Assembly: GCF_036321535.1 (NCBI RefSeq) | Contig: NC_087436.1 | Coordinates: 61,134,001-61,198,000 of the forward strand | Length of the DNA: 64,000 nt | DNA from: Camelus dromedarius | Taxonomy: Eukaryota | Reading direction: 5' to 3' | Part shown: positions 906 to 63,195 of the stretch, piece by piece | Layout: every line of letters begins with the position of its first letter | How positions within the stretch are numbered: position 1 is the first letter of the stretch | The notes under the pieces: model-generated | Seen by the model: only the letters and a program-made list of their open reading frames with translations | Databases searched by the model: none | Told to the model about the DNA's origin: nothing | Translations under genes and position numbers: made by a program

Positions 906-993
906 GGGGATTGGAGGAATAGCTTAGTGGTAGAGCACATGCTTAGCATGCACGAGGTCCTGGTTTCAATCCTCAGCATCTCCATTAAAAAAA
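906..993 (+). mobile_element. tRNA-Ala(AGC)-derived SINE, Vic-1-like (camelid)
   Basis: A box TAGCTTAGTGG (920-930), anticodon loop CTTAGCAT, B-box-like GTTTCAATCC, A tail. Imperfect TSD aagacttaatattta (891-905) / aagacaatgttta (994-1006). Confidence 0.85.
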
Positions 994-6139: not shown

Positions 6140-6790
6140 TTAGGTAGGATAGCAAAGTGGTTAAAAATACACACTCTAGATACTCTGGTTCTGATATTTA
6201 CCGTGTAACACTGGCCCAGCCCTTTCCCTCTCTGCTTCACTTTCTTATCTGTAAAATGGGCATAATATACTCTCTGTAAGGCTGTTGTAAGGATAATTAT
6301 TGAAAGCGGTTCCTGGCTGACACAGTGAGTTCTATAGAAGAGTTTGCTATAAGTATTACTATAAGCATACAACCAAACTTTTCATGCTAGATATTCCTTG
6401 TGGTGAATTTAAATATATTTCATGTGGCAACCAGCATGTTAGTACTGGCTCTGGGTTCAGTTGAATGGCTCTGAACCTTGGTTCAGTACTTAATAAATGT
6501 GTGACCTTGGCCAAATTATTGACCTTTTTGTGCTTCAATTTTCTTATCTATAAAATGGAGACAAATAATGCTAATTCCTTCAAAGCATTGTGGTGAGGGC
6601 TAAATGAGATAATACATGAAAAATAAGTCATGTTACTTCTCTGTGCCTCAGTTCACTTAAATGCAGAATGGGGATTATCATGGAACCTAGCTTATGGGGC
6701 TGTTTTGAGAATTGAGGATTAGACATATATATGGTGCTTAGAACAGTGCTGTAGACATGGTAAGCACACGCTACTTATTAGCCATTGTTT
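6140..6790 (+). mobile_element. Cluster of three MIR fragments
   Basis: Cores near 6240 (cttatctgtaaaatggg), 6500-6560 (tgtgtgaccttggccaaatt) and 6635-6780 (ctctgtgcctcagtt..gtgcttagaacagtgc). Confidence 0.75.
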
Positions 6791-7572
6791 GTATTAAATG
6801 ACTACCACTTCCATCGAGTCATAATATTACTACTACCATTTATTTAATGTGCATTGTACTTAAGATTCTGATATAGTGACCGACATAGTCCAACTTGTCT
6901 CACTTTGTCTTTCCTTTGGAATTGGCAGTTTTCACCCTCCCCTCCCATTTTGGCCTGTTTATCCACTCTGATTTTTTATTGACTCAATTACCACTTCCCT
7001 GAGTACTGTCTACACACACCAAGTTAATGGCATGTTATTTGCTGAGTGAGGCGTTTTCCCCATCTTGCTTCGGTCTTGGAAGTCTCTCGAGCTCCCTCCT
7101 GACATAAAGAGCTCAGGTGTAATGTTATTAAAACTCCCACTGGGCTCCTGGTGTACCTCAGTTTTGTGACTATAACTGCTTTTAAGCAATTTCAGAATGT
7201 TATTAGCCTGAGGCCTTTGCTTAGGCAGGAAGAATTAGCATTAATTAATTAATGCTCCCAGTCTTGGACGGTTTGGAACCTTTGTATGTTTTACCTTTTG
7301 TAGTGAATGTCGGAACATACAAACTCTGACTTATATAATTAATTCCTCAGCTTCCTCAAATCCTTTCTGGAAATATAATATAAAAAGAATATAAATAGTG
7401 GAGTATAAAAAGTGGACATAGTAAGCACATGCTACTCATTAGCCATTGTTTTTACTAAATGACTACCACCCCCATCGAGTCATTATAATATTACTACTAC
7501 CATTTATTTAATGTGCATTGTACTTAAGATTCTGATATAGTGACCCACATAGTCCAACTTGTCTCACTTTGT
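6751..7572 (+). repeat. Direct repeat pair of ~160 bp (6751-6908 and 7412-7572)
   Basis: Manual alignment gives 9 substitutions and one 3-nt indel. Confidence 0.95.
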
Positions 7573-7769
7573 ATTTCTCTTAAATCTTCCCTGCATCATT
7601 CATTTCTTCATTCACAATTTGAAGCATTTATTTAGTGCCTACTATATGCTAGGCATGTGGGAGGGAAGTAGAGGTGAAAATGAGAAGGCCTAGAGGAAGA
7701 GAAAGGTGTCATAGGAATGCCCAGACCCATTTCTATAGTGTAAAAAAGAATGAATAAATGAATAAGAAT

Positions 7770-24319: not shown

Positions 24320-24879
24320 TTAGTGTGGGGGAAGGAACTTCCTGGGCTTCAGAGCCTGGAGACTTGGATTTCCCTCTGTGTTCCAACACATCCTCCCTAA
24401 CTGTAAGTTCTTGGGTATGCTATAATACTATCCTGAGCTAGTTTCATCATCTGTTCAATGGAAATGATAATCCTGGGTGATTGTTAGGATTAAGTAAAAT
24501 AAGTGTATAAAATATATTGCATGATGTTTAGCTCATGGCTGGTCCCCCGTTAACATTGTTCGGGCACTAATAAGTGGCTGGCCCTGCAGTCTCAGCAGGA
24601 GGTGGCTAGGAAAGAGAGAAGCCAAGAGGTTTTCTGGTGAAGGTCAGTTGGGTAGGTGCTAGAAGGCCTGTGGCCTAAGCAGTGCTCACCATCCTCTTTA
24701 GTGTGAAAATCACAGTCATGACTGCAAGTCCCAGCAGCTTTGCTTAATGGCCTGGCTTCCTGGGAGTTTTCTAAGCGTGGTTTGTGCAGTCATTCCCATA
24801 AGTTTATATTATGTATACATATAAAAAATTTTTTAACCATTTTAAAATTTATTTATGTATTTGTTTTACAATATCATAT

Positions 24880-27800
24880 TTTTAAATTGAAGTATAGTTG
24901 ATGGACAATATTATATGTTACAGGTATACAATATAGCGATACACAAATTTTTAAAGTTTATATTCCATTTATAGTTATTATAAAATATTGGCTATATTCC
25001 CAGTGTTGTACAATACATCCTTGTAGTTTATTTTATACCTGATAGTTTGTACCTCTTAATCCTCCACCACCATCATGCTCCTCCCTTCCCCTCTCTCCCT
25101 TGGTGACCACTAGTTCTTTCTCTACATCTGTGAGTCTGTTTCTTTTCTGTTATGTTCACTAGTTTGTTTTATTTTTTTAGATTCTACATGTAAGTGATAT
25201 ATTACAGTATTTGTCTTTCTCTTTCTCTGTCTGACTTATTTCACTTAGCATAATGCCATCCAAGTCCATCCATGCTGTACAAAAGAAACTAATGCAACAT
25301 TTTAAGTCAACTGTACTCTTCAGTTAAAAAGCAAACAAGCAACCAACCCACCTATTTAAAATATGGGCAAAAGAACTGAACAGACATTTTTCCAAAAGAG
25401 GAAATGCAGATGGCCAACAGGAACATGAAAAGTTGCTCAGCATCACTAATATCAAGGAAATGCAAATCAGAATCACAATGAGATATCACCTACCTGTCAG
25501 AATGGCCATCATCAAAAAGAACACAAATAACAAATGTTGGCAAGGATCTGGAGAAAAGGGAACCTTTGTACACTGTTGGTGGGAATGTAAATTGGTGCAG
25601 CCACTACAGAAAACAATATGGTTTCTCAAAAACCTAGAAATAGAACCACCATATGGCCCAGCAGTTCCACTCCTGGGCATATACCTTAGAAAAACAAAAA
25701 CATTAATTCAAAAAGATACATATACCCCACTATTAACAGCAACATTATTTATAATTGCCAAGATATGGAAGCATCCTAAGTGCACATCAGTGTATCAGAT
25801 TTCTGGTTAAGATGGCAGAGTAGTAGACCCCCAGCTCACCTTTCTTCGTGACTACAACAAAACTACAACTGACTGCTAAACAACCATCAAAAAAAAAAAA
25901 AAAAAAGATCCTTTTTGCTAGGTTCCAGTCTTCTTAACTGGAAATGTAAAGAGGGAACCATAGTAGGATGGTAGAAAGGGTGTGCTCATGATATAATTGG
26001 GCCCCATACCCGCTGGGTGGGCAGCCCACAAGCTGAAGAATAATTAAGTTGTGGAGGCCCTCCCACAGGTGTGAGAGTACTAAGCCCCATGTTAGTCTCC
26101 CCACCCCTGGATTCTGGCACCGGGAGGAGGAGACCCCAGGACATCTGGTTTTGAAGGCCAGTAGGGCTTAACTCCAGGAGCCCCCATGGAGCTGGGGGAA
26201 ACAGAGACTTCATTCTCTTGGGAAGTGTACACAGAATCTTGAGTGCCCCAGGTCCAAGGGCAGAGGCAGTGATTTCATAGGAACCTGGGCCAGACCTGCC
26301 TGCTAGTTTTGGAGGGTTTCCTGGGGAGGTAGGGGACAGCTGCAGCTCACCCAGCAGACATAAAAGCTGGTGGCGGACATTCTGGGAGTGTTTATCTACA
26401 TGAGCTTTCTTGGAGGCTGACATCTCGATTGGATCATTAGCACCAAGACGTAGCCCCACCCAGCAGCCTGTAGGCTTAAGGGCTGGGAAACCTCAGGCCA
26501 AACAACATACTGTGTTCCCATCCATCAGCAGACTTCCTGAGTCACAAATGCCTCTAGACACAGCCCTACCCATCAGAAGTCCAGGACCAAGCTTCACCCA
26601 GCAGTGGGCAGGCACTGGCTCCTCCTGCTGGGAAACCTGCATAAGCCTCTAGTCCTGCCTCATCCACCATGGGGCAGATACCAGAAATAAGAAAACAACA
26701 ATCCCAAAGCCTGTGGAAGGAATCACAAACACAGGTCAGACTCTACCCTGGGACCAGCTGGACTCTGGCCCTTGGGTGACAAGAGGAATGTACTGCTAGG
26801 ACTCATAGGATGTCTCCCACAGAGGACCATCTGTCCAAGGTTGAGAAATGTAACTAACCTACCTAAAAATACAAATAGAAAGATAGACAATATGAGGCGG
26901 CAGAGGAGTATCTTCGAGGCCAATGCACAAGATAAAATCCCAGAAGAAGAAGTAAGTGATGAGGACACAGGCAGTTTATCTAAGAATGAGTTTAAAGTAA
27001 TGATGGCAAAGATGTTCTCAAGAGAACTCAAGAGGAGCATAGATGCACTGAGTGAAGTTTTTAGGAAAGAGTTGGAAAATATAAAGAATACCCAAACAGA
27101 ATTGAAGAATAAAATCACTGAAATGAATAACACACTAAAAGGAACCAAGGATAGACTAAATGAGGCAGAAGAATGGATCAGTGAGCTAGAAGACAGATTA
27201 ATTGAAATCACTATTGCAGAACAGAAAAAAGAAAAAATGAAAAGAAATGAGGATAGTTTAAGAAAACTCTGGGACAACATGAAGTGCACTAATATTCACA
27301 TTATAGGGGGTCCCAGAAAGAGAAGAGAGAGAGAAAGGACCCGAGAAAATTTTTGAAGAGATAACCAAAAACTTCCCCAACTTTTGGAAAGGAAACAATC
27401 ACCCAAGTCCAAGATGCACAGAGAGTTCCACACAGGATCAACCCAAAGACGAACACACCAAGGCACATAGTCATCAAATTGACAACAATTAAGGATGAGG
27501 AGAAAATATTAAAATTAGCAAGAGAAAAGCAACAAATAACATACAAGGGAACTCCCATAAAGTTATCAGCTGATTTTTCAGCAGAAACTGTGCAGGCCAG
27601 AAGGTAGTGGCATGATATATTTAAAGTGATGAAAGGGGAAAACTTACAACCAAGAATACTCTATCTAGCAAGGCTCTTGTTCACATTTGATGGAGAAATC
27701 AGAAGCTTCACAGATAAACAGAAGCTAAAAGATTTCAGCACCACCAAACCAGCTTTACAACAAATGTTAAAGGACCTTCTCTAGTCATCAAACCGTAAGA

Positions 27801-28332
27801 AAAGAGAACAAAAAGAAGAAAGAGAGAAAAAAGACCTACAAAAGATCACTTTGGTTGTTCTTCTGTGGTTTTTTATAAATTTTGAAATTGTTTGTTCTAT
27901 TTCTGTGAGGAATATTGTGAGTATTTTGACAGGGGTTGCATTGGATCTGTAGATTGCTTTGGATAGTGTGTCCATTTTGATAATGTTGATTCTTCCAATC
28001 CAGGAGCACAAGATAGCTTTCCATTTCTTTGTATTATCTTCAATTTCCTTCATCAGTGTTTTAGAGTTTTCAGAGTATAGATAACCTCCTTGGTTAAGTT
28101 TATTTCTAGATATTTTGTTGTTTTTGATGCAAAGGAAATGTTTATGCCAGTTATAAAATTCTGGTTTTTGAAGTGGAGAAAAAACAACAACAGTGAATGA
28201 AGGGCTGCAAATGGCAAAATGTCCTTCTTTTTATGGGTGAGTTGTATTCCATTGCATATGTATGCTACATCTTTTCTATCCATTCATCTATTGATGTGCA
28301 CTTAGGATGCTTCCATATCTTGGCAATTATAA
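24880..28332. mobile_element. Rearranged L1 mosaic with fragments on both strands
   Basis: 3' end (-) 24880-25278; 3'-terminal stub (+) ~25284-25330; ORF2 C-terminus (+) ~25335-25789; 5'UTR+ORF1 (+) ~25800-27840; ORF2 middle (-) ~27842-28130; filler; ORF2 end (-) 28203-28332. Confidence 0.9.
26892..27784 (+). pseudogene. Disrupted L1 ORF1
   Basis: MRRQRSIFE..RLNEAEEWISELEDR..LWDNMKCTNIHIIG. Frameshifts after ~27305 and a TAG at the ARREW motif; ends ..LKDLL*. Confidence 0.88.
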
Positions 28333-28399
28333 TTATAATTATATATATTTTTAATAGGTAAATCTTTCATTTGATTTTCCTGCATATGCGTATGGATAT

Positions 28400-34369: not shown

Positions 34370-37300
34370 AAAAATTTTTTTAAATGAACAGTTTACAACA
34401 AAAGTAGGAGAGAGATAACAGAGATTTCTTATATATCCCTTGCCCCCACAGATGCATAGCCTCCCCCTTTATCAACATCACTCACCAGAATGGTGCATAT
34501 TTTACCAAGGATGAACCTCCATTGACAAATTATAATCATCCGAAGTCCATTGTTTATCTTAGGGTTCACTCTTGGTATTGTGCATTTCATGGATTTGGGT
34601 AAATGTGTAACAGATATCCATCATTTTAACATCATGCAGAATAATTTCACTGCCTTATAAGTCCTTTGTGGTCCACCTATTCATCCCTCCTGCACCATCC
34701 CATCCCTGGCAACGACTAATCTTTTATTGTCACCATAGTGTTGCCTTTTCCAGGATGCCACATTGTTGGAATCATGCAATGTGTAGCCTTTTCTAATTGG
34801 CTTCTTGATAATACACATTTTAAGTTTATTCTATGCCTTTTCATGGCTTGGTAACTCTTACTTTTAGTGCTGAGTAATATTCCATTGTCTGGATATACCA
34901 CAGTTTATTTATCTATTCACCTATTGAAGGCCATATTGGTTGCTTCCAAGTTTTGACAATTATGAATAAAGGTGCTATAAATGTCTGTGTGCAGATTTTT
35001 ATGTGGACATAAGTTTTCACCTCCTTTGGGTAAATACCAAGAAGTAAAATTGATGGATCATATGGTCAGAATATGTTTATATTTTAATTTTTTATTTTAA
35101 TAAACTTTTAATTTTAGAATAGTTACAGATTTACAGAAAAGTTACAGAGGTATAGAGCACTCCAGCCTGTTTTATACTCAGTTTCCCCATGGGGTTTTTT
35201 TTTTTTTTTGGTAGTAGTATGTTTAATTTTGTAAGAAACTGCCAAAACTGTCTTCCAAAGTGGCTGTGCCATTTTGTATTCCCACCTGCACTGAATCAGA
35301 GCTCCTGTTGCTCCTTATCCTCACCAGCATTTGGTGTTGTCAGTGTTCTGGATTTTGGTCATTTTAATAGATGTATCATTGTATCTCATTATAGTTTTAA
35401 TTTGTATTTCACTAATGAGAAATGATGTGGAACATCTTTTCATATACTTATTTACCATCTGTGTATCTTCTTTGGTGATGTATCCGTTAAGGTCTTCTGC
35501 GCATTTTAAAAATCAAGATGTTTGTTTTCTTATTGTTGAGTTTTAAGAGTTCTTTGTGTGTACATATATTTTTATTGAAGTATAGTCAGTTTACAGTGTA
35601 TCAATTTCTGGTGTACAGCATAGCATTTCAGTCATACATATATACACATATATTCACTTTCATGTTCTTTTTCATTATAGGTTACTGCAAGATGTTGAAT
35701 ATAGTTCCCTGTGCTATACAGAAGAAATTTTTGTTTATCTATTTTATATATAGTAGTTAATATTTGCAAATCTCCAATGTCTAATTTATCACTACCCACT
35801 CCTTTCCCCCTGGTGACCAAAAGATTGTTTACCATGTCTGTGAGTCTGTTTCTGTTTTGTAGATGAGTTCATTAGTGTCTTCTTTTTTGCTTTGTGTGTG
35901 TGTATGTTTTGTTAAAATATAGTGTCAATATTGTGTCAGTTAATGGTGTACAGCGTAGTAGTTTAGTCATACTATATATACATATATTTGTTTTCATATT
36001 CTTTTTCATTATAGGTTACTATAAGATACTGAATGTAGTTCTCTGTGTTATACACTATAAACTTGTTGTTTATCTATTTTATATATAGTAGTTAGTATCT
36101 ACAACTCTCAAATTCCCAATTTATCCCTTCCCACCCTCTTCCCTTACTGGTAACCCTAAGTTTGTTTTTTTAGATTCCACATATGAGTGATGTCATATGG
36201 TATTTTTCTCTCTCTTTCTGGCTTACTTCACTTAGAATGATGATCTCCAGGTCCATCCATGTTGATACAGGTCGCATTATTTTATTATTTTTATGGCTGA
36301 GTAGTATTCCATTGTATAAATATACCACAGCTTCTTTATCCAGTCGTATGTTGATGGACATTTAGGTTGCTTCCTTGTCTTGGCTATTGTTTATAGTGCT
36401 TCTATGCACATTGATGTGCATGTATGTTTTCAAATTAGAGTTCCCTTTGAATATATGTCTAGGTGTAGGGTTGCTATATCATATGGTAAGTCTATTTTTA
36501 GTTTTTTGAGGAATCTCCATACTATTTTCCATAACAGGTGCACTAAACTGCATTTCCACCAACAGTGTAGGAGGGTTCCCCTCTCTCCACACCCTCTCTA
36601 GCATTTGTTGTTTGTGAACTTTTTAATGATGGCTGTTCTGACTGGTGTGAGGTAATATCTCATTGTAGTTTTGCACTTCTCTGATAATTAGCAATGTTGA
36701 GCATTTTTTCATGTGCCTGTTGGCCATTTGTATGTCTTCGTTGGAGAATTGCTTGTTTAGGTCTTCTGCCCATTTTTGGATTGGGTTTTTGTTGTTGTTG
36801 TTAAGTTGTAAGAGCTGTTTATATATTCTGGAAATTAAACTTTTGTCTGTTGCATCTTTTGTAGATATTTTCTCCCATTCCATAGGTTGTTGTATGGTTT
36901 TGTTTATGGTTTCCTTTGCTGTGCAAAAGTTTGTAAGTTTAATTAGGTCCCCTTTGTTTTTTTTGTTTGTTTGTTTGTTTTTTGCTTTTGTTTCTATTGC
37001 CTGGGTAGACTGCCCTAGGAGAACATTGCTAAGATTTATGTCAGAGAATGTTTTGCCTATGTGTCCTTCTAGGAGGTTTTAGTGTCTTGTCTTACATTAA
37101 AGTCTTTAAGCCATTTTGAGTTTATCTTTGTGTATGCTATGAGGGAGCATTCTAACTTCATTGATTTACATGATGCTGTCCAGTTTTCTCAACAACACTT
37201 GCTGAAGGGGCTGTCTTTTCTCCATTGTATATTCTTGCCTCCTTTGTCAAACATTAATTGACCGTAAGTCTGTAGGTTTATTTCTAGGTCTTTATTCTTT

Positions 37301-38295
37301 GTATGTTTTGAATAACAGTCCTTTATTAGTGTCTTTTGTAAATATTTTCTCTCACTCTGTGACTTGTCTTCTCATTCTTTCTCTCTCTCCCTTTTGATCA
37401 TTCAGTATTTATTACCTAAGTTGGATATAAAAATGAACAAAATTTAGTGCAAAATATACATAAATTCCATCCCCAACATAATACAAAAAGTTTTTCCTTT
37501 GTATAATATACCTGGACCCTACTGTGCCCTATAAGACCTTATGTGGATTGGTCATGACAATTTCTCTGACTCATGCATTGCTTTCTTTCCCCCATTGTAT
37601 CCAGCTACTGGTTCTCTGCTTGTCCTTTAGGTCCACCAGGCTCATTCACTTTTAGGGCTTCTACACTTCCACTTTCCCTAGGAACTTTTTGGTTTCATTC
37701 TTTTGGTATTGTCTTTTGCAGAGTAGAAGTCTTAATTTTAATGAAGTCCAACTCATCAATTATTTCCTTCATGGACTGGGCCTTTGGTGTTTTATCTGAA
37801 AAGACGTCTCCATACACAAGGTCATCTAGGTTTTTTCCTGTACTATCTTCTAGGAGCTTTATAGTTTATTGTTTTACATTTAGGTCTGTGTTTAATTTTT
37901 GTGACGAATGTAAGGTCTGTGTCTAGATTCTTCTTTTTTTTTTTTAGCATGTGGATTTCCAGTTGTTTCACCACCATTTGTTGAAGATACTACCTTTGTT
38001 TCATTGAATTGCCTCTTCTCCTCTGCCAGAGATCAGGTGACTATATTTATGGGAGGATGTCTATTGCTGGGCACTCTATTCTCTTCCATTGATCCATCTG
38101 TCTATTTTTTTGCCAATAGCACACTGTCTTGATTACTGTAGCTTTATAATAAAGCTACTAATGTTAGGTAGTATCGCTTCTCCAACTTTGTTCTTCATCT
38201 TCAATATTGTGTAGCTACTCTGGATCTTTTGCTTTTCTATACAAATTTTAGAATCAATTTGTTGATTCTAAGTAACTTTCTAGGATTTTGATTAG
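34370..38295 (-). mobile_element. Old L1 (L1MC-like) hosting several nested insertions
   Basis: Collinear host pieces 34370-35079, 35209-35560, ~37296-37380 and 37695-38295, with an L1MC-type 3'UTR (cccttgcccccacagatgcatagcctccc). Confidence 0.8.
35565..37295 (-). mobile_element. Younger 5'-truncated L1 with a second L1 3'UTR copy nested at ~35905-36165
   Basis: Strong homology to 41400-42810; ORF2 C-terminal fragments ([21 protein letters not shown]); two 3'UTR copies. Confidence 0.88.
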
Positions 38296-39990: not shown

Positions 39991-40356
39991 TGTCACAGGT
40001 TGGGTTCTCTGGAAGCAGATGCTGAGGTAGAGTTTGGTATGCAGGATATTTATTAGGAATCGGCACCTGTGGAGGGAAAGGGCAGGAAGGGGGATGGGGC
40101 AGATAGGGAGGTTAAGCTGATGCAGGCTGGACGAAGCCTCAGTCAGCCCCATTGGGAGCCCTGGGTTGCACGTAGCCTGTCAGAATGGTGTAGCCTTTAC
40201 ATCCCTCCTCCGTTGGCCATGGGTTGTGGGTTGCCCTGTGTGCCTTTGGGTGACATGGCTGTTTGCAGCGAGGCCAAAGGAACTGATTACTGGGACAAGC
40301 CCACCCCTGAATGGGGATCTGGATGGCACATCTCCATGTCCATAAGAGTTCATACA
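39991..40356 (-). mobile_element. ERVL-type LTR (LTR16-like)
   Basis: tgtcacaggttgggttctctggaagcagatgctgag..atatttattagg. Confidence 0.65.
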
Positions 40357-41706
40357 ATCAGAGGAGGGGATTCTGGAGGCGAGGGTGGGAGCTTTGCCAG
40401 GGACTGGTGTTTCTATATTAGCAAGTAGGGCTTTGGAGCTGATAAAATGTGTACAAATAATATTAATGTGACATTGCTCATACCCATGACTTGGGGGGAT
40501 CTGGAACATTCATGTTATATACATTGATTGCATACTTTTATAATAAAAATCCTAGAAGTAATGGAAAAAATGACCTAAAATTCCGCCACCCCCTCTGTTC
40601 ACCTGTTCCCTTTTGTTCTTTCTCAGATATGTCTGTAAGTTTTATAGAATCCAATTTGATCTTGTTTTTATGCTAATTTGAGGATTTAGATCTAAAAGTC
40701 TAGACACCGTGTGGGAAAAGTGATCTGGCTAGTAAATGAAAGAGGTGTAACCTGAACAGCGTGAGCTAGGTGATGTGTAGCATACATCACTGCTCAGCCC
40801 AGCCGTCAGGCAAAGAATCAGCTGGAGGAAATAAATATTCTTATAGCTCTGATTACAAGCTCCACCCCACTTTTTAGAGAGATTAATCTTTATGATTAAA
40901 TGGTAGTGTTGGTATTGAGAGGAATGTTCTTAATATCTTATACCAGCCTTTTTCTTCTGAGTCATCAGTACAATTTCCCTGAGCTTGTTAGTTTTTGCAT
41001 GTTGGCTTCATAACAGGCAGTTGCATTTTGGGTTGATTATTTGCATTTTAAAAAATAGGCTGCTCACACTGCATTAAATTTTTATAGCTACTGTGTTCAT
41101 TGATCTTATGACTCTTTTAGCAGTTACTATTCCAGCTGTATATTTTAATTACACTTGAACAATCAGCCTTTCTTAGTCCTTGAGTAATGTGCTGAGTTTA
41201 ATTTGTCCTGTTGTCAAATTCCAACTTAAATTATTTCATTAGTGTTGGCAGTCCTGTATTACACACACTTCCTCGTCTTTTTAAATCAATTTCTTGGGGT
41301 TTTAATTATGTAGAATAGTCAATAAAAGTTGATGCCAACAAAAGAACTATCAAGGCAAATGATCACAAAGAATATATGCCCATGAGATATATTTTTTTAA
41401 CATTTTTTATTGATTTATAATCATTTTACAATGTTGTGTCAAATTCCAGTGTTCAGCACAATTTTTCAGTTATTCATGGACATATACACACTCATTGTCA
41501 CATTTTTTTCTCTGTGAGTTATCCTAACATTTTGTATATATTTCCCTGTGCTATACAGTGTAGTCTATTCTACAATTTTGAAATCCCAGTCTATCCCTTC
41601 CCACCCTCCACCCCCCTGGTAACCACAAGTCTGTATTCTCTGTCTGTGAGTCTATTTCTGTCCTTTATTTACGCTTTGTTTTTGTTTGTTTGTTTGTTTT
41701 TGTTTT

Positions 41707-44700
41707 TTAGATTCCACATATGAGCGATCTCATATGGTATTTTTCTTTCTCTTTCTGGCTTACTTCACTTAGAATGACATTCTCCAGGAGCATCCATGTT
41801 GCTGCAAATGGCATTATGTTGTCGGTTTTTATGGCTGAGTAGTATTCCATTGTATAAATATACCACCTCTTCTTTATCCAGTCACCTGTTGATGGACATT
41901 TAGGCTGTTTCCATGTTTTGGCTATTGTAAATAGTGCTGCTATGAACATTGGGGTGCAGGTGTCATCCTGAAGTAGATTTCCTTCTGGATACAAGCCCAG
42001 GAGTGGGATTCCTGGGTCATATGGTAAGTCTATTCCTAGTCTTTTGAGGAATCTCCACACTGTTTTCCATAGTGGCTGCACCAAACTGCATTCCCACCAG
42101 CAGTGTAGGAGGGTTCCCCTTTCTCCACAGCCTCTCCAGCATTTATCATTTGTGGATTTCTGAATGACGGCCATTCTGACTGGTGTGAGGTGATACCTCA
42201 TTGTAGTTTTGATTGCATTTCTCTGATAATTAGTGATACTGAGCATTTTTTCATGTGCTTTTTGATCATTTGTATGTCTTCCTTGGAGAATTGCTTGTTT
42301 AGGTCTTCTGCCCATTTTTGGATTGGGTTGTTTATTTTTTTCTTATTGAGTCGTATGAGCTGCTTACATATTCTGGAGATCAAGCCCTTGTCGGTTTCAC
42401 TTGCAAAAATTTTCTCCCATTCCGTAGGTTTTCTTCTTGTTTTATTTCTGGTTTCCTTTGCTGTGCAGAAGCTAGTAAGTTTCATTAGGTCCCATTTGTT
42501 TATTCTTGCTTTTATTTCTTCTAGGAGAAAATTTTTAAAATGTATGTCAGATAATGTTTTGCCTATGTTTTCCTCTAGGAGGTTTATTGTATCTTGTCTT
42601 ATGTTTAAGTCTTTAATCCATTTTGAGTTGATTTTTGTATATGGTGTAAGGGAGTGTTCTAGCTTCATTGTTTTACATGCTGCTGTCCAGTTTTCCCAAT
42701 ACCATTTGCTGAAGAGACTGTCTTTATTCCAATGTATATTCTTGCCTCCTTTGTCAAAGATGAGTTGACAAAAAGTTTGTGGGTTCATTTCTGGCCTCTC
42801 TATTCTGTTCCATTGGTCTATATGTCTGTTTTGGTACCAATACCATGCTGTCTTGATGACTGTAGCTCTATAGTATTGTCTGAAGTCTGGGAGAGTTATT
42901 CCTCCAGCCTCTTTCTTTCTCTTCAGTAATGCTTTGGGAATTCTAGGTCTTTGATGGTTCCATATGAATTTTATTATGATTTGTTCTAGTTCTGTGAAAT
43001 ATGTCCTGGGTAATTGGATAGGGATTGCATTAAATCTGTAGATTGCCTTGGGCAGTGTGACCATTTTAACAATATTGATTCTTCCTATCCAAGAGCATGG
43101 AATATCTTTCCATTTTTTAAAGTCTTCTTTAATTTCCTTCATCATTGGTTTATAGTTTTCTGTGTATAATTCTTTCACCTCCTTGGTTAGATTTATTCCC
43201 AGATATTTTATTACTTTGGGTGCTATTTTAAAGGGGATTGTTTCTTTACTTTCTTCTTCTGTTGATTTATCGTTAGTGTAAAGAAATGCAACTGATTTTT
43301 GAACGTTAATTTTGTAACCTGCTACCTTGCTGAATTCTTCAATCAGCTCTAGTAGCTTTTGTGTGGACCTTTTAGGGTTTTCTATATATAGTAACATGTC
43401 ATCAGCATATAATGACACTTTTACCTCTTCTTTTCCAATTTGGATCCCTTTTATTTCTTTCTCTTGCCTGACTGCTGTGGCTAGGACTTCCAGGACTACG
43501 TTGAATAGGAGTGGTGATAGTGGGCATCCTTGTCTTGTCCCAGATTTTAGTGGGAAGCTTTTGAGTTTTTCACCGTTGAGTACTGTGCTGGCTGTAGGTT
43601 TGTCATGTATAGCTTTTATTATGTTGAGATATGTTCCCTCTATACCCACTTTGGCGAGCGTTTTTATCATAAATGGGTGTTGAATTTTATCAAATGCTTT
43701 TTCTGCATCGATTGAGATGATCATGTGGTTTTTGTCCTTTCTCTTGTTGATGTGATGTATTACACTGATTGATTTGCGTATGTTGAACCAGCCTTGTGTC
43801 CCTGGGATGAACCCCACTTGGTCATGATGTATAATCTTTTTTATGTGTTGTTGGATTCTGTTTGCTAAAATTTTGGTGAGGATTTTGGCGTCTATGTTCG
43901 TCAGTGATATTGGCCTATAATTCTCTTTTTTGGTAGTGTCTTTGCCTGGTTTTGGTATCAGGGTGATGGTGGCTTCATAGAATGAGTTTGGGAGTATTCC
44001 CTCCTTTTCAATCGTCTGGAAGAGTTTGAGAAGGACTGGTATGAGTCCTTCTTTGTATGTTTGGTAGAATTCCCCGGTGAAGCCGTCCGGTCCTGGACTT
44101 TTGTTTGTAGGGAGGTTTTTAATTGCTATTTCTATTTCCTTTCTAGTGATCGGATTGTTCAAGTGTTCAGATTCTTCTTGATTCAGTTTTGGTGGACAGT
44201 ATGTTTCCAGAAACTCGTCCATCTCCTCTAGGTTATCCAGTTTGGTTCCATATAGTTTTTCATAATATTCTCGTATGATATTCTGTATTTCTATTTTGTT
44301 TGTTGTAATTTCTCCATTTTCCTTTCTTATTTTGCTAATTTGTGCTCTCTCTTTTTTCTTCTTTGTGAGTTTGGCCAGAGGTTTGTCGATTTTATTTACT
44401 TTTTCAAAAAACCAGCTTTTGGTTTGGTTGATTTTTTCTATGGTCTTGTTAATCTCTATTGTATTTAATTCCTCTCTGATCTTTATTATTTCCTTCCTTC
44501 TGCTGCTTTTTGGGGCTTTTTGTTCTTCTTTTTCTAATTCATTCAGGTGGTGGGTTAAATTGTTTATTTGAGATTGTTCTTCTTTTTTGAGGAAGGCCTG
44601 TATCGCTATAAACTTCCCTCTTAGCACTGCCTTTGCTGTGTCCCATAGGTTTTGAGTGGTTGTGCTTTCATTATCATTTGTCTCAAGGTATTTTTTAATT

Positions 44701-45499
44701 TCAGCTTTGATTTCCTCATTGATCCATTGTTTTTTCAATAACATATTGTTTAATCTCCATGCTTTCCTTTTTTTCTCCTTTGTTTCTCTGTTGTTGATTT
44801 CCAGTTTCATGGCATTGTGGTCAGTAAAGATGCTTGAGATAATTTCTATCTTCTTAAAATTGTTGAGGTTTCTTTTGTGCCCAAGTACATGATCGATCCT
44901 GGAAAATGTTCCATGTGCACTTGAAAAGAATGTATATCCTATTTTTTGGGGGTGTAATGCTCTGAAAATATCCACCAGATCTAGTTTTTCTATTGTAGTA
45001 TTTAATTTCTCTGTTGCCTTGTTTATTTTCTGTCTGGAAGATCTGTCTAGTGATGTTAATGCAGTGTTAAAATCTCCAACTATGATTGTATTCCCATCAA
45101 TATCCCCCTTTATCTCTGTTAGTAATGCTTGTATGTACTTAGGTGCTCCTATATTGGGTGCATATATATTAACGAGTGTAATATCCTCATCTTGTATCAC
45201 TCCTTTAATCATTATAAAATGTCCTTCTTTATCTTTATGGCCTTTGTTTTAAAGTCTATTTTGTCTGAAATCAGTACTGCAACACCTGCTTTTTTGGCTT
45301 TTCCACTTGCATGGAATATCCTTTTCCATCCTTTCACTCTTAATCTATATGTGTCCTTCTCCCTAAAGTGGGTCTCTTGTATGCAGCATATTGAAGGTTC
45401 TTGCTTTATTATCCAGTCTGCCACTCTGTGTCTTTTGACTGGAGCATTTAGACCATTAACATTTACAGTAATTAATGATAGATGTGTGTTTATTGCCAT
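41707..45499 (-). pseudogene. L1 ORF2p (APE endonuclease, reverse transcriptase, C-terminal cysteine-rich domain) with 2 frameshifts
   Basis: Three ORF-track pieces: 45212-45499 (MAINTHLSLITVNVNGLN..CCIQETH), 42198-45212 (1004 aa; [36 protein letters not shown]) and 41707-42315 ([18 protein letters not shown]). Frameshifts near 45235 and 42213. Confidence 0.97.
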
Positions 45500-45904
45500 T
45501 TTGAACTTATCTTTGCAGTTGAATTGGTATATCCTCTTTGTTCCTTTCTTCTTCCTTTTGTGGTTTGGTAATTTTCCTTTGTATTATCATGGATTTTATT
45601 TAATTTTTGTGACTCCTTTGTAAATTTTTGGCTTGTGGTTACCCTTTTTTGTAAATCTATCAACCCATTAATATAACTGTTTTTATTAAACTGATAGTAA
45701 CATGATCTCAAACCCATCCTACTGTTAAAAAAATTTAAAAAAGAAAGAAAAAAAATACTCTATATTTCCCTGCCTCCCTCTCCCACTCTCAGTGATTTGT
45801 ATGTCTTCTTTTATAATTTCATGTTTACTTTTTTTGTAATTCATGAGTTACCACCTTTCCAGTTGTGTGTTTCTCATTTCTGTAGCATACTGCTGCTTTT
45901 CTAT

Positions 45905-46806
45905 TTAGAATAGCCCTTTCAATATTTCTTTTAGCATGGGTTTAGTGTTGCTAAACTCCTGCAGCTTTTTTTTTTGTCTGTGAAACTCTTTATTTCTCCT
46001 TCTATCCTCAAGGATAGCCTTGCTGGATAAAGGATCCTAGGCTGCATCTTTTTTTCATTCAGGGCTTTGAATATATCTTGCCACTCCCTTCTGGCCTGTA
46101 GTGTTTGTGTAGAGAAATCAGCTGAGAGCCTTATGGGGGGTTCCCTTGTAACTTACTCTTTGCTTTTCTCTTGCTGCCTTTAGAATCATTTCTTTATCCT
46201 TGACTCTGGCCATCTTGATTATGGTATGTCTTGGGGTGGGTCTATTTGGGTTCTTCCTGTTTGGGACCCTCTGAGCTTCCTGTACTTGGATATCTGATTC
46301 CTTCTTTAAGTTTGGGAAGTTTTCAGTCATGATTTCTTCAAAAACCTTTTCAATCCCCTTTGATCTTTCTTCTCCTTCTGGGACCCCTATTATGCGAAGA
46401 TTGGGACGCTTTATATTATCCCATAGGTCCCTTATGCTATTTTCATTATTTTTTATTTGCTTATCTTGTAGTTCTTCTGAATGGGTGCTTTCTATTGCCC
46501 TGTCTTCTAGATCACTAATTCGTTCCTCTGCATTATCTAGTCGGCTTTGCCCAGCTATTAGATCATTCCTCATCTCTGTCAATGAGTTTACCTATTCTAC
46601 TTGGCTCTTCTTTATAGCTTCAATTTCATTTTTGACATATTTTATATCTCTAAACACTATCTCTTTTAATTCCTTCAGCAATTCGATCACTCCTTTTTTG
46701 AAATCTTGATCTAGTAGGCTATCGATGTCTATTTCGTTGATCTTTCAGGGGATTTCTCTTGTTCTTTTAATTGCGAAAGGTTTTTCTGCTTCTTCATCTT
46801 GCTCAT
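45905..46806 (-). pseudogene. L1 ORF1p (coiled coil, RRM, CTD), disrupted
   Basis: ATG at 46806 (MSKMKKQKN), middle part with NLRIIGVPEGEE, TPRH and LKAAREK, end ARREW..YPARL..LKGLF* with stop at 45905-45907. Lesions: frameshift near 46743, in-frame TAG at 46592-46594, extra base in the G6 run 46135-46140, out-of-frame T10 run 45966-45975. Confidence 0.93.
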
Positions 46807-48467
46807 ACCTCTTTGGCACTGTGGTTTATGGAGTATCAGTTGTTTATTTTGGTCCTTAAGGATTTTATCTATCTGATGCCTATTTAGGAATAGAACTTAG
46901 GAAAAAAAATAAGAGAGAGAGAGAAAGAATTTTAAAAGAAGGGAGAAAGAGGGTTTGAAAACTGTATAATGAATAATAGAAGAGGGAGTTGAAGCAGAGT
47001 ATTAATCGGGTTGAGACGTCCTTTTAAAACCTTTACAAAAAAAGGGGGGGGGAGGTGAATAGATATATTTGAAACCTGTGTCTAATCAATAGCAGGACAT
47101 CAAAACCCAAGAGAAATAGAAATGAATTAAGAAGTAAAAATTAAGAGAGTAATAGAAAATAGAACAGGTAAAAACAGGTTTAAAAAAAAGGGGGGGGGGT
47201 TGTCGGTGTTCTCCTGGAGTCTGTGTGCTTTTACTGTGAAGTCTTTCTGTCTTCGTCCTGTTTTGGAAGCTCAGCTTGCTGTTTTCAGAGGCCCTCCGTT
47301 GGCGCCCTCTTCTGTGCTGCTCCCAGCACCTGTCGGCAAGCAGATCGCGCCTCCTCCTAACACTGGGTCAGGTGCAGCTCTCCTCTGCTGTGGGTGGGCG
47401 GGTCGCTGCCCCTACGGATGCCGCAGTCAGATGTTGCAGACTGGCCGGGTAGGAGGGCGGGTCGTGCCCCCTCCCAGCACCTCGGTCAGGGGCTGTGTTC
47501 CTGCCCGAAAGGCGGGTGGCCGCTCTCGCTCTACCTGCGCTGACGGTAGTTCCGCTCTCTGTGCGGCTGCGCGCTCCGCGCTGGTCGGCGCTCCTCCGTT
47601 GGGCTCGGGGAAGACCGAGGGACAGCCCTGTCCCTGCTCCGAGCCAGAACCCAGCTCCTTGTTTGTCTTTGTGGAGCAAGTTCTCTGAGGGACCAGGATG
47701 GAAGGATCCTATCTGCCCCGGGCTGCAGGCCAGTCTCAGTCTGGCCTTTGAGGCTGCTAAGCCCTTCGGTGCGGATGCAGGTTTCGCCCCCGCCCCCGCC
47801 TGGGTGCTAAGCGCGGAGGATATGGCGGCTGTGCCTGAGCCCCGCCTCTCTTCCCCCGAAAACTTTCCGCAGGTTTTCAGAGATGGGGGTGTGCACCCTT
47901 CCCCCGAGAGCACATCAACCTTGCTGTTTTATGGAGGGCCCAGGTTGTTCTGCCCTGTGCACCCTCAGCCACGGCGCGCAGCCCCTTGCGTTCCCCCGGG
48001 GCTGCCTCCGTGCAGCCACTTCCGTCCTCCGCCCGGCTTGTGCAGCCTGGCCCTGCCTGCCACTGCCGGCCCGCGTCTCAGGCTGGGTGTCGGAGGGACG
48101 CTCTGTGCCCGTTTAACTTAGTTCTGTTAGTCAAGGGCTGCTCTGTACAGATCCGAGCCTCAGAGGCTCCCCCTCTGTCCCGCTGGCCTCTCAGTTGGAG
48201 AGGGGAGACCCAGCCAGCGAGCGCCAGTCCTCCTTTGCTGCTCCCTCCCTGCGGGACCCGTCCCGCGCTGCTTTGCCTTTTGTTCTTACTTTTTTCCTTT
48301 TCTCCTACCAGATTTTTGGCGTCTTTATCTTTTGAAGAGGGCGATGTTCTGTCGGAGTTCCACAGGTGCTCTGGTTGGCTGAGTGGGTCTGTAGATGTGG
48401 GTCTTGGTGTATTTGTGGGAGAGGGTGACCTGCGAGCGTCCTTCTACTCCGCCATCTTCTCCCTCCC
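46807..48467 (-). promoter_or_regulatory. L1 5'UTR / internal Pol II promoter, CpG-island-like, with YY1 site
   Basis: The only CpG-dense stretch in the window (~47300-48455). YY1 motif AAGATGGCGG at 48449-48458 (minus), about 10 nt from the L1 start as in other mammalian L1s. Confidence 0.85.
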
Positions 48468-50849
48468 GTAAACAACTCTTAAACTGTGCACTTATGAAGT
48501 CTGTCTCCCACTCGGCTCAGTCGAGATATATTTTATTAATGAACATCCATAGCATTTATAACAAAACATTAGTTGATTAATTCATACCATACCCCATAAG
48601 AATGGTGAGCAATTTTATTTTCATCTAGTTAATGACAAACTGTGGCAAAGAGAAACTATACAGACTATTGAAAGCTGCACAGCAAGCCAGAGGAAAATGA
48701 TTAGGAATTTCTGGATCATGGAAACATTAAAATAAATGATTTATTTGAAGATAGTAATAATATATTAGACTCTGATCAAAACATTGACTTCTGATGACTG
48801 TTTATTTTATTTTCATACCTAAGAGATTATAGAAGGAAAGGACATAAGCTTCTAGTTCAGAGGTTTTAAATTGCCTGACTATAGGCTACATGTGACTCAC
48901 AGACCTGTCTCTTGGAGTCTACAGAATTTTTTTAAAATTTGGATTTGGATGTCTTTAAAAAAGGTGTGAGCTCTCCAGCTTGCCACCTCTGTCTTGTAGT
49001 CTTGTTTTGGCCTGCTTTATACATATTTAAGTTACCTTCCTGATTCTGTGAGGCATTTGAGTTTGCTACTCCTGATTCTAGTACAGTGTCCTCACTTTCA
49101 GCTAGAAAACTAAGACCCAGAGGGCTTGAAGTTTTAAAGCACCCGTAAGATTACTAGAAGAGCTCAGCCTAGAACCGTTAGTTTCATGGCGCCACTCCAA
49201 TATTTTTTCCATTACATTGAGCAGCCTGTTTAAATTTTCTTCTGAGAATTAAAGCAAGACAAGTATTTCATTACATCTTTTTGGATTATGGTAATAAGGC
49301 CTTAAAGCTATAATACAGATCCATGGAGGACATCATAAGTTTCCTAATGCTTAAAAAGTATGTTATTTTGATGTGGCATAGAGAATGTTAGCTGCAAGTC
49401 AAAAGATACAGTTTCAGTCTCAGTCTCAGCTGTGTCACTAACTAGAGGCTATTTGACTTCATGGGCTTTGGTTTCCTCAGGGTATTGTACTAGATGAGCT
49501 CTAAGTCCCCTTCTAGCCCTAAGATCTTACGATTTTTTCATGAACTCCAGTAAAAGAATATACAGGAGTAGAAAGATAAGCAATTTGATTAAAATGTCAC
49601 TGTTCTAGGCAATCAGTTGCCTTCGGGAAGCATTGTGACGTTGAGCTTTGATGTCCTCACCCACATTTTCAGTTGGAGAGGAGATTCAGAAACATATAGT
49701 CTAGGGAGGTGGTTATTAGTAGGTTTGCACATTAACATTTAGAAGATCTCTGGAAGAAACTAAAGGGATAATTTCAGAGGTCTGGAGACTCTCTAATCCC
49801 GTTGAGGAGGGTATTGCTAAGCTACTGACTATCATGTCTGCTAGACCAAGAGCTCCTCCAGCACAAGGACTCTCTTTCATTCATCTTTGTTTTCCGTGGG
49901 CTTAGTATGTTGTCTGGTTCATAGTAGGTGCTCAATAGATACTGACTAAATTTCAACATTCAGAGGAGGACCAAGGAGTCCTAGTATTGGGAGGGATCTT
50001 AGAAATCAAATCCAGTTTCACTTGCCAGTGCAGAAATCCTCTCTGATATCCTAGGAGGCTGCTCACTAGGCTGCACTAGTTCACCCAGTCATTTAGTCCA
50101 TAAATATTTCTTGAGTGTCTCCTATCTACAGGAATGATTCTTGGGTACAATAGTGAATCAAAGAGGTACAGTCCCTGTACCAGGAAGTCTCCCATTTCAA
50201 GTGACTGGAATATACTATGCGTGACAGCTCTCCACTCCACCAATGACCAAGTCTCAGCTCCAACAACTTTCCTCTGGAAATGAAACTTCTTCTCTGATGA
50301 TAACAGCATCAGTTCTCCCTGATACTTTCTCCATGTGTCCAGCACATTGCTCTGGGACCTCCAGTATTCCTGAGGTCTGCATTTATGCCATCTCTGTCAC
50401 CCAGCCTTCACCTTGACCTCAATTTTAGACGTCATTTAACATTTCTTAAATCACCAGCATATGGGAACTTACCTGTGCCAATGGCCACATTCATCTTCGG
50501 AACAACTGGGCTCCTGCTTGGTCCTGGGAGTGGGAGCAGAAGAAGACACTCTGGTCATATTTTTCCTGGTTGGGCAGAAAAAGCTGCAGTGAGCTGTCAT
50601 GCTAGGAAACACTACCTTATATCCCAGCCTCCTGGAGAGTTTTCTTGCCTGATAGACAGAGGCCATTCAATCCTTTCTCCAAAGTCTCAGGAAATACCTT
50701 GTTGAAAACTTACTTTTTTTGAGTCAGTGTTAAGGAAAATTTGAAATGAGTGTGGATAGGGGAAAAGTATGGTTGAGGGGCAGGCTGGGCCTGAACACAA
50801 AGTCATGAAACATGTCCCATTTCAGGAACACAGTGTTCAGAATCTTCAG

Positions 50850-55770: not shown

Positions 55771-56500
55771 CACTCATGCATGCTGTAGGGACAGGGAGAG
55801 ATAGGATAGGGCCGTGCAGGAGGGATGTGAGAAATAGTTAAGAACATATGTGTACTCCAAGTCACCTGGCTTTTTTCCTGTGTCTTTTCCTTGATGCCAA
55901 ATCTGAGTAGTAAGACTGAGAAATGGGCACATGGTGGGAGAATGATGAAAAAGATGGGAGATGACAGGGGGAGCCATCTGCTCTCTGCCTTTATCACCAG
56001 TGCCTAATGCTTGACTCTGAATGCTAAATTTCAATTAAAAAAAATATTCAACTTAATTTTAATTTTTGTCCTCAAGGATTTAGTTAAATGCTGAACATTT
56101 AATCTAATTAAGATTACACTTAGCCCTGCTGTTTTCAGTCCTTGCTGAGAACTGTATTGAGTCATTTATTAACTCGATGACTTAAAACAGAATTTACAGG
56201 ACAACCATAAATCTAAGAGTGAGGAGGTGAGGCCCAGGTAAGAAAGGGAAAGAGAATTGGTTTATTTCACCTTGGGGCTAGGAGGCCCTGGGCAATGTGA
56301 CAGGGACCTCTAGACGAAGGGATGTTTTTGATGATAAGGTTGGAGACCACTGTTTGCAATCAGCATAAAATGGACAAATAGTTCATGAATTTTAGCAATA
56401 ATGTAAAAGCTATTCCTGGTTAAGGAGAGCTTGTCACTCAGGAGGATGTGTCCCTTTGGAACAGTGGAGGCCTCTGAAGAGGGAATATCTCTTTTACCAC

Positions 56501-56990
56501 TGTTATTGGAGGATAGGTTCTTGTCATGGGCAGGAAGGTATTCAAGAACGAGTCATAGTAAAGCGAAAGCAAGCTTATTCAGGGAGATACACACTCCATT
56601 GACAGAATGTGGGCCATCTCAGAAGGCAAGAGAGGCGCCCAGAGGTGTGTGGGTGGTTAGTTTTTATGGGCTATGTAATTGCATATGCTAACAAGTGGGA
56701 GGATTATTCTAACTGCTTTAGGAAAGGGGTACAGATTTTCAGAAATTGGGCCCAGCCCACTTTTTGACCTTTTATGGTCAGCCTGGGAACTGTCATGATG
56801 CCTGTGGGTATGTCATTTAGCATGCTGTTGTATTACAGTGAGCCTATAATGGTAAGATACTGCTTGCTAAACTTGACACCATACTGAAAGTTGAATCTTT
56901 CCCCATCTTGGTTCTAATCAGTTTATGGCCTGAGGACATTGCTGTGTCATCTTTTCATGGTTGTGCCCTGCCCTCTTTCCTCCTGTCTTA
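56501..56990 (-). mobile_element. Solo ERV LTR (copy 1 of a family pair)
   Basis: Starts TGTT, ends cctgtctta; flanks accac/actac; homologous to 62668-63195. Confidence 0.8.
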
Positions 56991-61065: not shown

Positions 61066-62667
61066 AAGTATGATTGTGGATGGATTATTTACTTTGTTAA
61101 CTTTCACTGTTGGTGTTTAGATAGAGCAACATCTTTCTGTTGTATAGGAACTTAGAAATTCTCAGACACTTTTCAATCTAGGCTGTTGAAAAGCCAGCAT
61201 TCAGAATATCCAGAGAGCAGCAAAAGTCTATCAGGATTCCAAATAACTCAAAATATGGGGGTTGTTGTGAAACCAACCGACAGCAGAAATCTACCTGCTA
61301 AAAGAAATCTGCATAATAATGAAAAGCACATTAAAGACCCAGATTACGGGACTAAAGAGGGCCCAGGAAGAGAAAGCAACTGGTTTGCAATTTTAGTTTC
61401 CTTCCTAAGTCACTTTCTGACCTATAGCCATTTTTCTAACCTCTGGGACTTTAAAATTTTTTTTCTAGGGGGAGATGACTTCCCCCCATTTTTTACTTTA
61501 TTATGTTGTATTCTTTTAGTCATTTACTTTGAGATCTTTAAGCTATGGCATGTTATTTGTAACAAGGTAAGGAAGACACATTGGCTCCTTTGAAAATTTC
61601 ATTGTTTTTTAATGAAGTGAAGTTGAGCCCTCTCCTCGGGCTTTCCTATAGCCATTGCTTGCTCCTGGTAAATATTCATAAATCTGCTATCATGGAAATG
61701 AAATAGAATGCCTCAAAATTACTTTGGGGGCATAAGGAAGGCCCTGAAGAGTGAACTGGGAGGATGCATTTCATTTTTAGATTTGTAATGAAGAAAGTAG
61801 GTTTTTTTTGGTTTGTTTTCTTTATTTTTAGTGGATGATGTGCCCTGGAGGAGAATTCCTAGGACCTGAGCAGATCATGTTCAAGGCAACACTTGTACAG
61901 TGAGGGCAGCAGGTTCTATCCGTATATGAGTGGTGGGCCTCTGAGAGGGCTGGTGGCAACTTCTTAGCATTCTCATCAGTGTAAAGGGACTCTTGGCACT
62001 GACTATGTTTTGGACTACACCTTCTTAAAACTCCTTGATGCTTTCTCATGCTCATTAGAGGATTTTCTTTAGGCTAATTCACATTCACTGAGTGTCTCAA
62101 TGGGAGAGGCACAGGTGTAAAATACCCAGGAAAGGGTAGCCCCATATATAAAGAGTTGATAAACTAGTAACTTCTGATGGCAGTCACACTGTTAGGGCAC
62201 CTTTAACTGTAGCGTGGAATCTTCCTCTCCTCTTCCCCTTTCATTACCTCCTCGGGAGCAAATCTAGGCTCTGGGGTCAAGGGCAGAATGATTTAATGAT
62301 TTTGGTGAACTGATAAAGGTGGTGTATTTAATCAGAGGCTGTTTGTAGAGAGAGAAGTCTGTTCTTGGAGTCACTTAAAGGAGAACTATAATCTAGAAAA
62401 TTAAGAGCATCAGCAACATTTGCAGTTGTGGAACATCAAGGTTAGGAGGAAAAAAATAAAAGCCCGAGAGGGCACTCTTGTCACTGGTTTCAAAGGAGCT
62501 AATTCTTAGGGTTATTAGCTGCCTCAATTTACAACGTTACATACCCTTGAACACCAAATGCTCATTATCAAAAATTAAGGAAGCGTGGAGCTAAGATTTG
62601 AATTATATTTTAGATAATAGATTTTGGAACATGCTTCATATTGTTAAGATTGACCTGACCTTACAAC

Positions 62668-63195
62668 TGTTGCTGGAGAATAGGTTCTTGCCTCACTTAG
62701 GAAAGAATTCAAGAGCAAGGCAGAGTAAAGTGAAACCAGTTTATTTAGAGAGATACACACTCCATAGGCAGAATACAGGCCATCTCAAAAGGCAAGAGGG
62801 AGAGAGACCGAGAGGTGGGGGGGTGTTTAGTTTAAAGTAAAAGTGGGTATACATTCCATAGATAAGAGTGCTGGTCATCTTAGAAGGCAAGAGAGAGAGT
62901 GACTCTGAGGTGTGTGGGTTGTTAGTTTTTATGGGCTTGGTAATTTCCTAGGCTAACGAGTGGGAGGATTATTCTTACTATTCTGGGGAAGGGGCAGAGA
63001 TTTCCAGGAATTGGGGCCCCGCCTATGTTTTGGACCTTTTATGGAACTGTCATGGTACCTTTGGGTATGCCATAAGGCTCAAGGTCTACTGGAAGTCGAA
63101 TCTTCTGACATCTTAGTTCTAACCAGTTTGTCCTGTCCTCAGTTGCTGTGTCATTCCGTGAGTGGTTGTGTCCTGCCCCCTATCATCCTATCTCG
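62668..63195 (-). mobile_element. Solo ERV LTR (copy 2) with internal tandem duplication
   Basis: Starts TGTTG, ends cctatctcg; flanked by caac on both sides; minus-strand AATAAA (tttatt near 62740). Confidence 0.8.

Follow-up and report, generated by a model that had tools for sequence, protein, structure and literature searches.

The 64,000-nt stretch of the Camelus dromedarius genome that we analysed (hereafter the window) contains a full-length L1 of 7,072 nt on the minus strand (41396-48467), in which the 5′ UTR, ORF1, ORF2 and a polyadenylation signal follow one another in order, with both reading frames broken. The 5′ UTR (46807..48467, minus strand) is CpG-rich over 47250-48467, where the GC fraction is 0.63, 74 CpG dinucleotides are retained and the observed/expected ratio is 0.61. 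Near its outer end lies an intact core at 48449..48458 (minus strand) that we take to be YY1-like; the start of the element was placed 9 nt beyond it, at a putative position of 48467 that derives from the location of this core and not from a subfamily consensus. ORF1 (45905..46806, minus strand) matches the Pfam families Transposase_22 and Tnp_22_trimer, and reading frames together with tblastn indicate an in-frame stop at 46592-46594, a frameshift near 46137 and possibly further lesions. ORF2 (41707..45499, minus strand) encodes the endonuclease and reverse transcriptase (Pfam Exo_endo_phos and RVT_1) and is interrupted, according to tblastn, by frameshifts near 45235 and near 42210; its homologues are L1 ORF2 proteins, with identities of at most 78% among the 120 matches listed.

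The 3′ UTR (41399..41706, minus strand) carries an AATAAA signal at 41406-41411, and the 3′ ends of three older L1s in the window align with it up to its terminus at 41399. Beyond the terminus, a residual A-tail is all that remains (41396..41398, minus strand), so that despite the presence of the AATAAA only 3 A lie outside the target-site duplication described below, and 7 A in all. The 3-nt tail contrasts with the 74 CpG still present in the 5′ UTR, a discrepancy for which ordinary tail shrinkage is the only explanation we can offer. The retained CpG suggest a fairly young copy, and the lesions and lost tail suggest one that is not fresh. None of its three frames has an entry in the protein collection, and no homologue among those listed exceeds 78% identity. 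A search for relatives of the L1 5′ end, probed with a stop-free frame of that end, confirmed 0 of 599 candidates from metagenome contigs and 0 of 302 from viral ones, collections in which mammalian DNA is not expected.

No host gene was recognised in a scan of 140 open frames, taken from the 192 longest that lie outside the L1; three of these had matches, all within the older L1. This older L1, at 24879-28335, is rearranged: its minus-strand 3′ part is apparently split by about 2.9 kb comprising a plus-strand ORF2 piece, a 5′ UTR with ORF1, and an inverted ORF2 piece, and a 44-nt inverted duplication (25746-25789 and 28292-28335) is identical at 43 of 44 positions; the whole looks like a complex inversion or a twin-priming product. 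Fragments of older L1 ORF2 and 3′ UTR sequence on the minus strand are clustered at 34862-38210; among them, 36161-37298 shares 80% identity with the young L1, and 35552-35830 and 35890-36167 are repeats of one another at 79%. The only tRNA-like match in the whole window (913-984; Rfam RF00005, 37.3 bits) is followed by an A-run and is probably a short tRNA-derived SINE or a retrocopy. A 166-nt direct duplication (6751-6913 and 7412-7577, about 660 nt apart) is 92% identical, and a same-strand repeat is present in two copies (56494-56816 and 62661-63073) with an identity of about 77% across 174 and 236 nt.

One target-site duplication encloses the L1 and a 55-nt leader

An earlier note on this DNA had proposed that a 12-bp target-site duplication (TSD) begins at 48523, some way outside the L1, and an exact second copy of that word is indeed found on the other side of the element. 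Comparing 48400-48800 with 40000-41800, we identified a single 12-nt word as the longest shared sequence (the runner-up being 9 nt), with its 5′ copy at 48523..48534 and its exact 3′ copy at 41384..41395, both read on the minus strand; across both strands of the window (128 kb) this 12-mer occurs twice, at these two places only. On the strand that was cleaved, the flank of the 5′ copy reads TTTT/AT, an endonuclease site that accounts for 7 of the 102 sites in Table 1 of PMC4859970 (our hand count, in which two sites appear twice), so that the insertion has the TSD at an endonuclease-type site characteristic of L1. A 12-bp match would be expected by chance in 100 nt with a probability of 3.4e-5 under an order-2 Markov model, and 1.9e-4 empirically (25 non-self occurrences around 116 pseudo-junctions, 113,320 bases, self-matches removed); the 8 bases beyond the A-run, taken by themselves, give 2.6e-3. 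The duplication can also be read as 15-17 nt with one mismatch, which shifts its outer edge only and leaves the leader unchanged. The duplication is real, and this one exact repeat encloses 7,127 nt, consisting of the 7,072-nt L1 and a leader of 55 nt.

It could still be asked whether the boundaries are misread, whether the 12-mer is a coincidence or the 55 nt and the L1 arrived in separate events, in either order, or whether the assembly is in error. The A-tail is very short and is continuous with 4 A's among the 12 duplicated bases; several of the frameshifts fall within or close to homopolymers and could be errors in the sequence. Nevertheless, the chance of such a match is between 2e-4 and 3e-3 per 100 nt, and had the L1 landed inside the leader, part of the leader would recur near the 3′ end of the insertion, where no piece of it exceeding 8 nt is present. 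Nor does the leader resemble a vector or phage: it has no match in plasmids, and the 8 phage records with matches share pieces of 20-22 nt with it at E values of 0.3-4, which is the level of chance. We accordingly regard an error of this kind as very improbable. Words sampled from 47000-50500 (n=366) were present at 0.85-0.88 in 20 sequencing runs from two organisms, a measure that does not distinguish an occupied site from an empty one, and the exact junction pattern had 0 matches in metagenome contigs, a collection in which mammalian DNA is not expected.

The leader and its inner end

The leader is the minus-strand 55-mer at 48468-48522, beginning with G and running directly into the L1-like start at 48467, and the sequence that the earlier note had quoted for it was reproduced in full. 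It consists of non-L1 bases located 5′ of the putative L1 start and inside the duplication, an arrangement expected of a 5′ transduction. No second copy occurs within the window (best blastn E value 0.32). The leader is likewise not derived from its neighbourhood: alignment scores against six candidate template regions (among them the two strands of the L1 body, the flank on either side and the 5′ UTR of the older L1) all fell within the range of shuffled sequences, the lowest being reached by 20 of 200 shuffles, and its predicted RNA fold is no better than that of shuffles (z 0.14, or z -0.55 with 60 nt of L1 attached). A local template or fold-back was ruled out as the source by the shuffle-level scores within the window. 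A 13-nt match just before the older L1 5′ end (25774-25786) was also rejected, as it is ORF2 sequence with an E value of 3.9.

The first inserted base, G, is followed by a purine (48522..48522, minus strand) and is a candidate for a nucleotide copied from the RNA cap, as had been suggested earlier. The G is present and does not reflect homology to the target site, the base after the 3′ TSD copy being A; a cap origin is nevertheless weakly supported, because 20% of background 55-mers begin with G.

At the other end of the leader, the sequence TT|AAGA (48477..48482, minus strand; TCTT/AA on the other strand) constitutes an L1-endonuclease-type site whose cut would fall 13 nt before the L1 start, and the 13 nt at 48468..48480 (minus strand) could, given the position of this site, be the 5′ TSD of a parent L1. 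The 13-mer was not found behind the L1 tail. Among 21 cut positions checked, 5-25 nt before the L1 start, TCTT/AA at 13 nt is the best. How striking this is depends on how narrowly the site is defined: the TCTT/AA hexamer itself stands 7-20 nt upstream of 0.7% of background positions, either of the two commonest hexamers in the same interval 2,726 of 113,560 (2.4%), TT with an A-rich tetramer 4.6%, and the loose YYYY/RR form 30,308 of 113,560 (27%). A leading G and a top-two site occur together in 496 of 113,100 background 55-mers (0.44%). In Table 1 of PMC4859970, TCTT/AA accounts for 13 of 102 sites and is exceeded only by TTTT/AA, at 14 (hand count, two sites appearing twice), and TSDs of exactly 13 nt for 1 of 82, those of 12 and 14 nt numbering 6 and 14, respectively (hand count). 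Taking a 13-nt TSD at 1-7% of cases and a background rate of 4.66e-4, we computed by hand a likelihood ratio of about 3-19 in favour of the site. As the motif was chosen after inspection of the sequence, we treat this as moderate support. The proposal that the inner end represents the parent's endonuclease site and 5′ TSD thus gains from the presence of TCTT/AA and the 2.4% background of the top two hexamers, and loses from the 27% frequency of the loose form.

One alternative that bears on this site is that an unrelated nucleic acid was captured at the 5′ junction and the endonuclease-like sequence arose by chance, whether through a jump of the reverse transcriptase from the 5′ end of the L1 RNA to another RNA, through ligation or trans-splicing beforehand, or through repair filler from another locus. 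Capture has precedent: PMC13174262 catalogues chimeras of L1 and small RNAs, its examples involving tRNA halves, rRNA fragments and first exons as well, and including full-length L1 chimeras for which no source L1 was detected in the donor gene. The locus resembles the small-RNA/L1 chimeras described there (U6, U3, 5S, tRNA halves, 28S, Y and 7SL) in having a short foreign 5′ segment within one insertion, and the loose motif is common, with a background of 27%. Unlike those chimeras, however, the leader has no Rfam match, cmscan returning no family at E<=10, although its power for such short fragments is limited; over the 401 bases scanned the one match (E 3.3) lies inside the L1 and not in the leader. 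The L1 part is also complete here, whereas U6 chimeras often have a 5′-truncated L1 (PMC13174262). Against capture stand, in addition, the lack of a local template in the window and the need to accept the strong form of the inner site as a 2-5% coincidence. Taken jointly, these routes appear unlikely.

A second alternative concerns where the L1 truly starts. The leader might be common to a sub-lineage, either as an earlier transduction that was inherited with the start kept at the extended end or since the true subfamily 5′ end is simply longer. Recurrent use of one source is documented in humans, where long-read data placed 5′ transductions on 49 of 4,429 polymorphic L1 insertions and a single source L1 gave rise to 20 transductions, all of them 5′ (10.1101/2024.04.18.590093), and where 3 of 14 members of one L1-Ta family carry 5′ transductions, of 10, 18 and 539 nt (PMC6425141). 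At this locus, however, the YY1-like core lies 9 nt inside 48467, and the AT-rich inner end of the leader resembles target DNA and not a CpG-rich 5′ UTR. The sole comparison available within the window, an older L1 5′ end with its core at 25809, has at most 19 bases before the same core and these are unrelated to the leader, although it belongs to another subfamily. A shared leader is in our estimation quite unlikely.

The remaining 41 nt (48481..48521, minus strand) could not be placed, and may represent either the upstream flank of a parent L1 or a spliced exon. The latter would follow if an upstream promoter (of a gene, lncRNA or LTR) had produced a short first exon that was spliced to an acceptor immediately upstream of the parental element, with the parent TSD kept. 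The 5′ half of this segment is GC-rich and the 3′ half AT-rich, the first 24 nt of the leader having a GC content of 62% and the remainder 32%, and a CAG stands 3 nt before the endonuclease-type cut, both of which would suit a splice junction. A GC contrast as strong occurs in 441 of 10,284 background 55-mers (4.3%), however, and CAG is a common triplet. A first exon of less than 40 nt would moreover be unusually short. Splicing upstream of L1 does occur, as shown by the 539-nt human case, which is driven by a HERV-H LTR7Y and preceded by an untemplated G (PMC6425141), and by RAP1GDS1-L1PA2, which PMC13174262 reports along with 17 mRNA/lncRNA-L1 chimeras. As in these cases, a full-length L1 here carries 5′ sequence of other origin inside a single duplication, and a leading G is shared with the 539-nt case; the locus differs in that their leaders, 153 and 539 nt long, map to exons and are longer than the 55 nt here. 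A spliced origin seems improbable.

A probable 5′ transduction in a broken L1 copy

The explanation that best accommodates these observations is that the leader was acquired by collinear transcription from an upstream start at the parent L1, a reading to which we assign a probability of a little under 0.6; that some form of 5′ transduction took place is distinctly likely once the spliced variant and the larger part of the shared one are included. Under the collinear reading, RNA from a parent L1 elsewhere in the genome would have started about 54 nt upstream of that element, crossed 41 nt of parental flank and the parent's 13-nt 5′ TSD, and then entered the L1. The capped RNA would have been reverse-transcribed to its 5′ end, with the cap probably giving the first G, and a single event of target-primed reverse transcription would have inserted the 7,127-nt cDNA. 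The parent and its upstream start, like the assignments made for the 13-mer and the leading G, are what we infer here from the anatomy of the insertion.

In favour of collinear transduction we count the exact TSD around both parts, the full-length L1, TCTT/AA at 13 nt, the leading G and the lack of a local template. Counting against it are the A-tail of only 3 nt outside the duplication and the rarity of TSDs of exactly 13 nt (1 of 82). An intact YY1-like core, in addition, favours accurate initiation, which speaks against an upstream start; the known YY1 sites are unmutated in the human family described in PMC6425141, three members of which nevertheless have the transductions given above. The short promoter-directed cases in PMC6425141 and PMC9341517 are also only 4-18 nt long, compared with 54 nt here.

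These cases nonetheless provide the closest precedent. According to PMC4859970, 5′ transduction is a rare event among L1 insertions and an untemplated G is evidence that the RNA was capped, and in the macaque a 4-nt 5′ transduction with an untemplated G is reported for L1RS2 (PMC9341517). The camel locus is like the short human and macaque cases (PMC6425141, PMC9341517) in that its L1 is full length and is accompanied, inside the TSD, by additional bases of non-L1 origin, and like that of L1RS2 in its leading G. It is unlike them in the length of the leader (54 nt plus the G), in the broken state of the copy and the near loss of its A-tail, and in that those papers identify the donor. The earlier note's reading of the leader as a 5′ transduction is in sum partly supported: the position of the leader within the TSD, the endonuclease-like inner site and the published precedent all fit, while the frequency of the loose site form (27%) tempers the argument.

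As both reading frames are now broken, the leader most likely does nothing at this locus beyond serving as a barcode of its source. We consider the insertion likely to be a further example of a known, uncommon event. As a single broken copy it leaves views of L1 biology as they are, and its importance would grow only if the leader proved common to many copies. A narrow literature search, which is not proof of absence, found no published camel L1 insertion with a transduction and a target-site duplication, and in PMC8605555, a survey of camelid repeats, the one passage that mentions transduction deals with the 3′ type. If the collinear reading is correct, the 54 nt would identify the parental copy and the point at which its transcript began, adding modestly to what is known of L1 initiation beyond primates and mice. 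As a doubtful prospect, one may further postulate a source element or sub-lineage of camelid L1 whose transcripts habitually begin about 54 nt upstream, the captured flank thereby becoming a heritable 5′ end in daughter copies. Were the leader heritable in this way, it would represent an early step in the turnover of L1 promoter ends, seen in a non-model mammal and with a traceable pedigree of copies.
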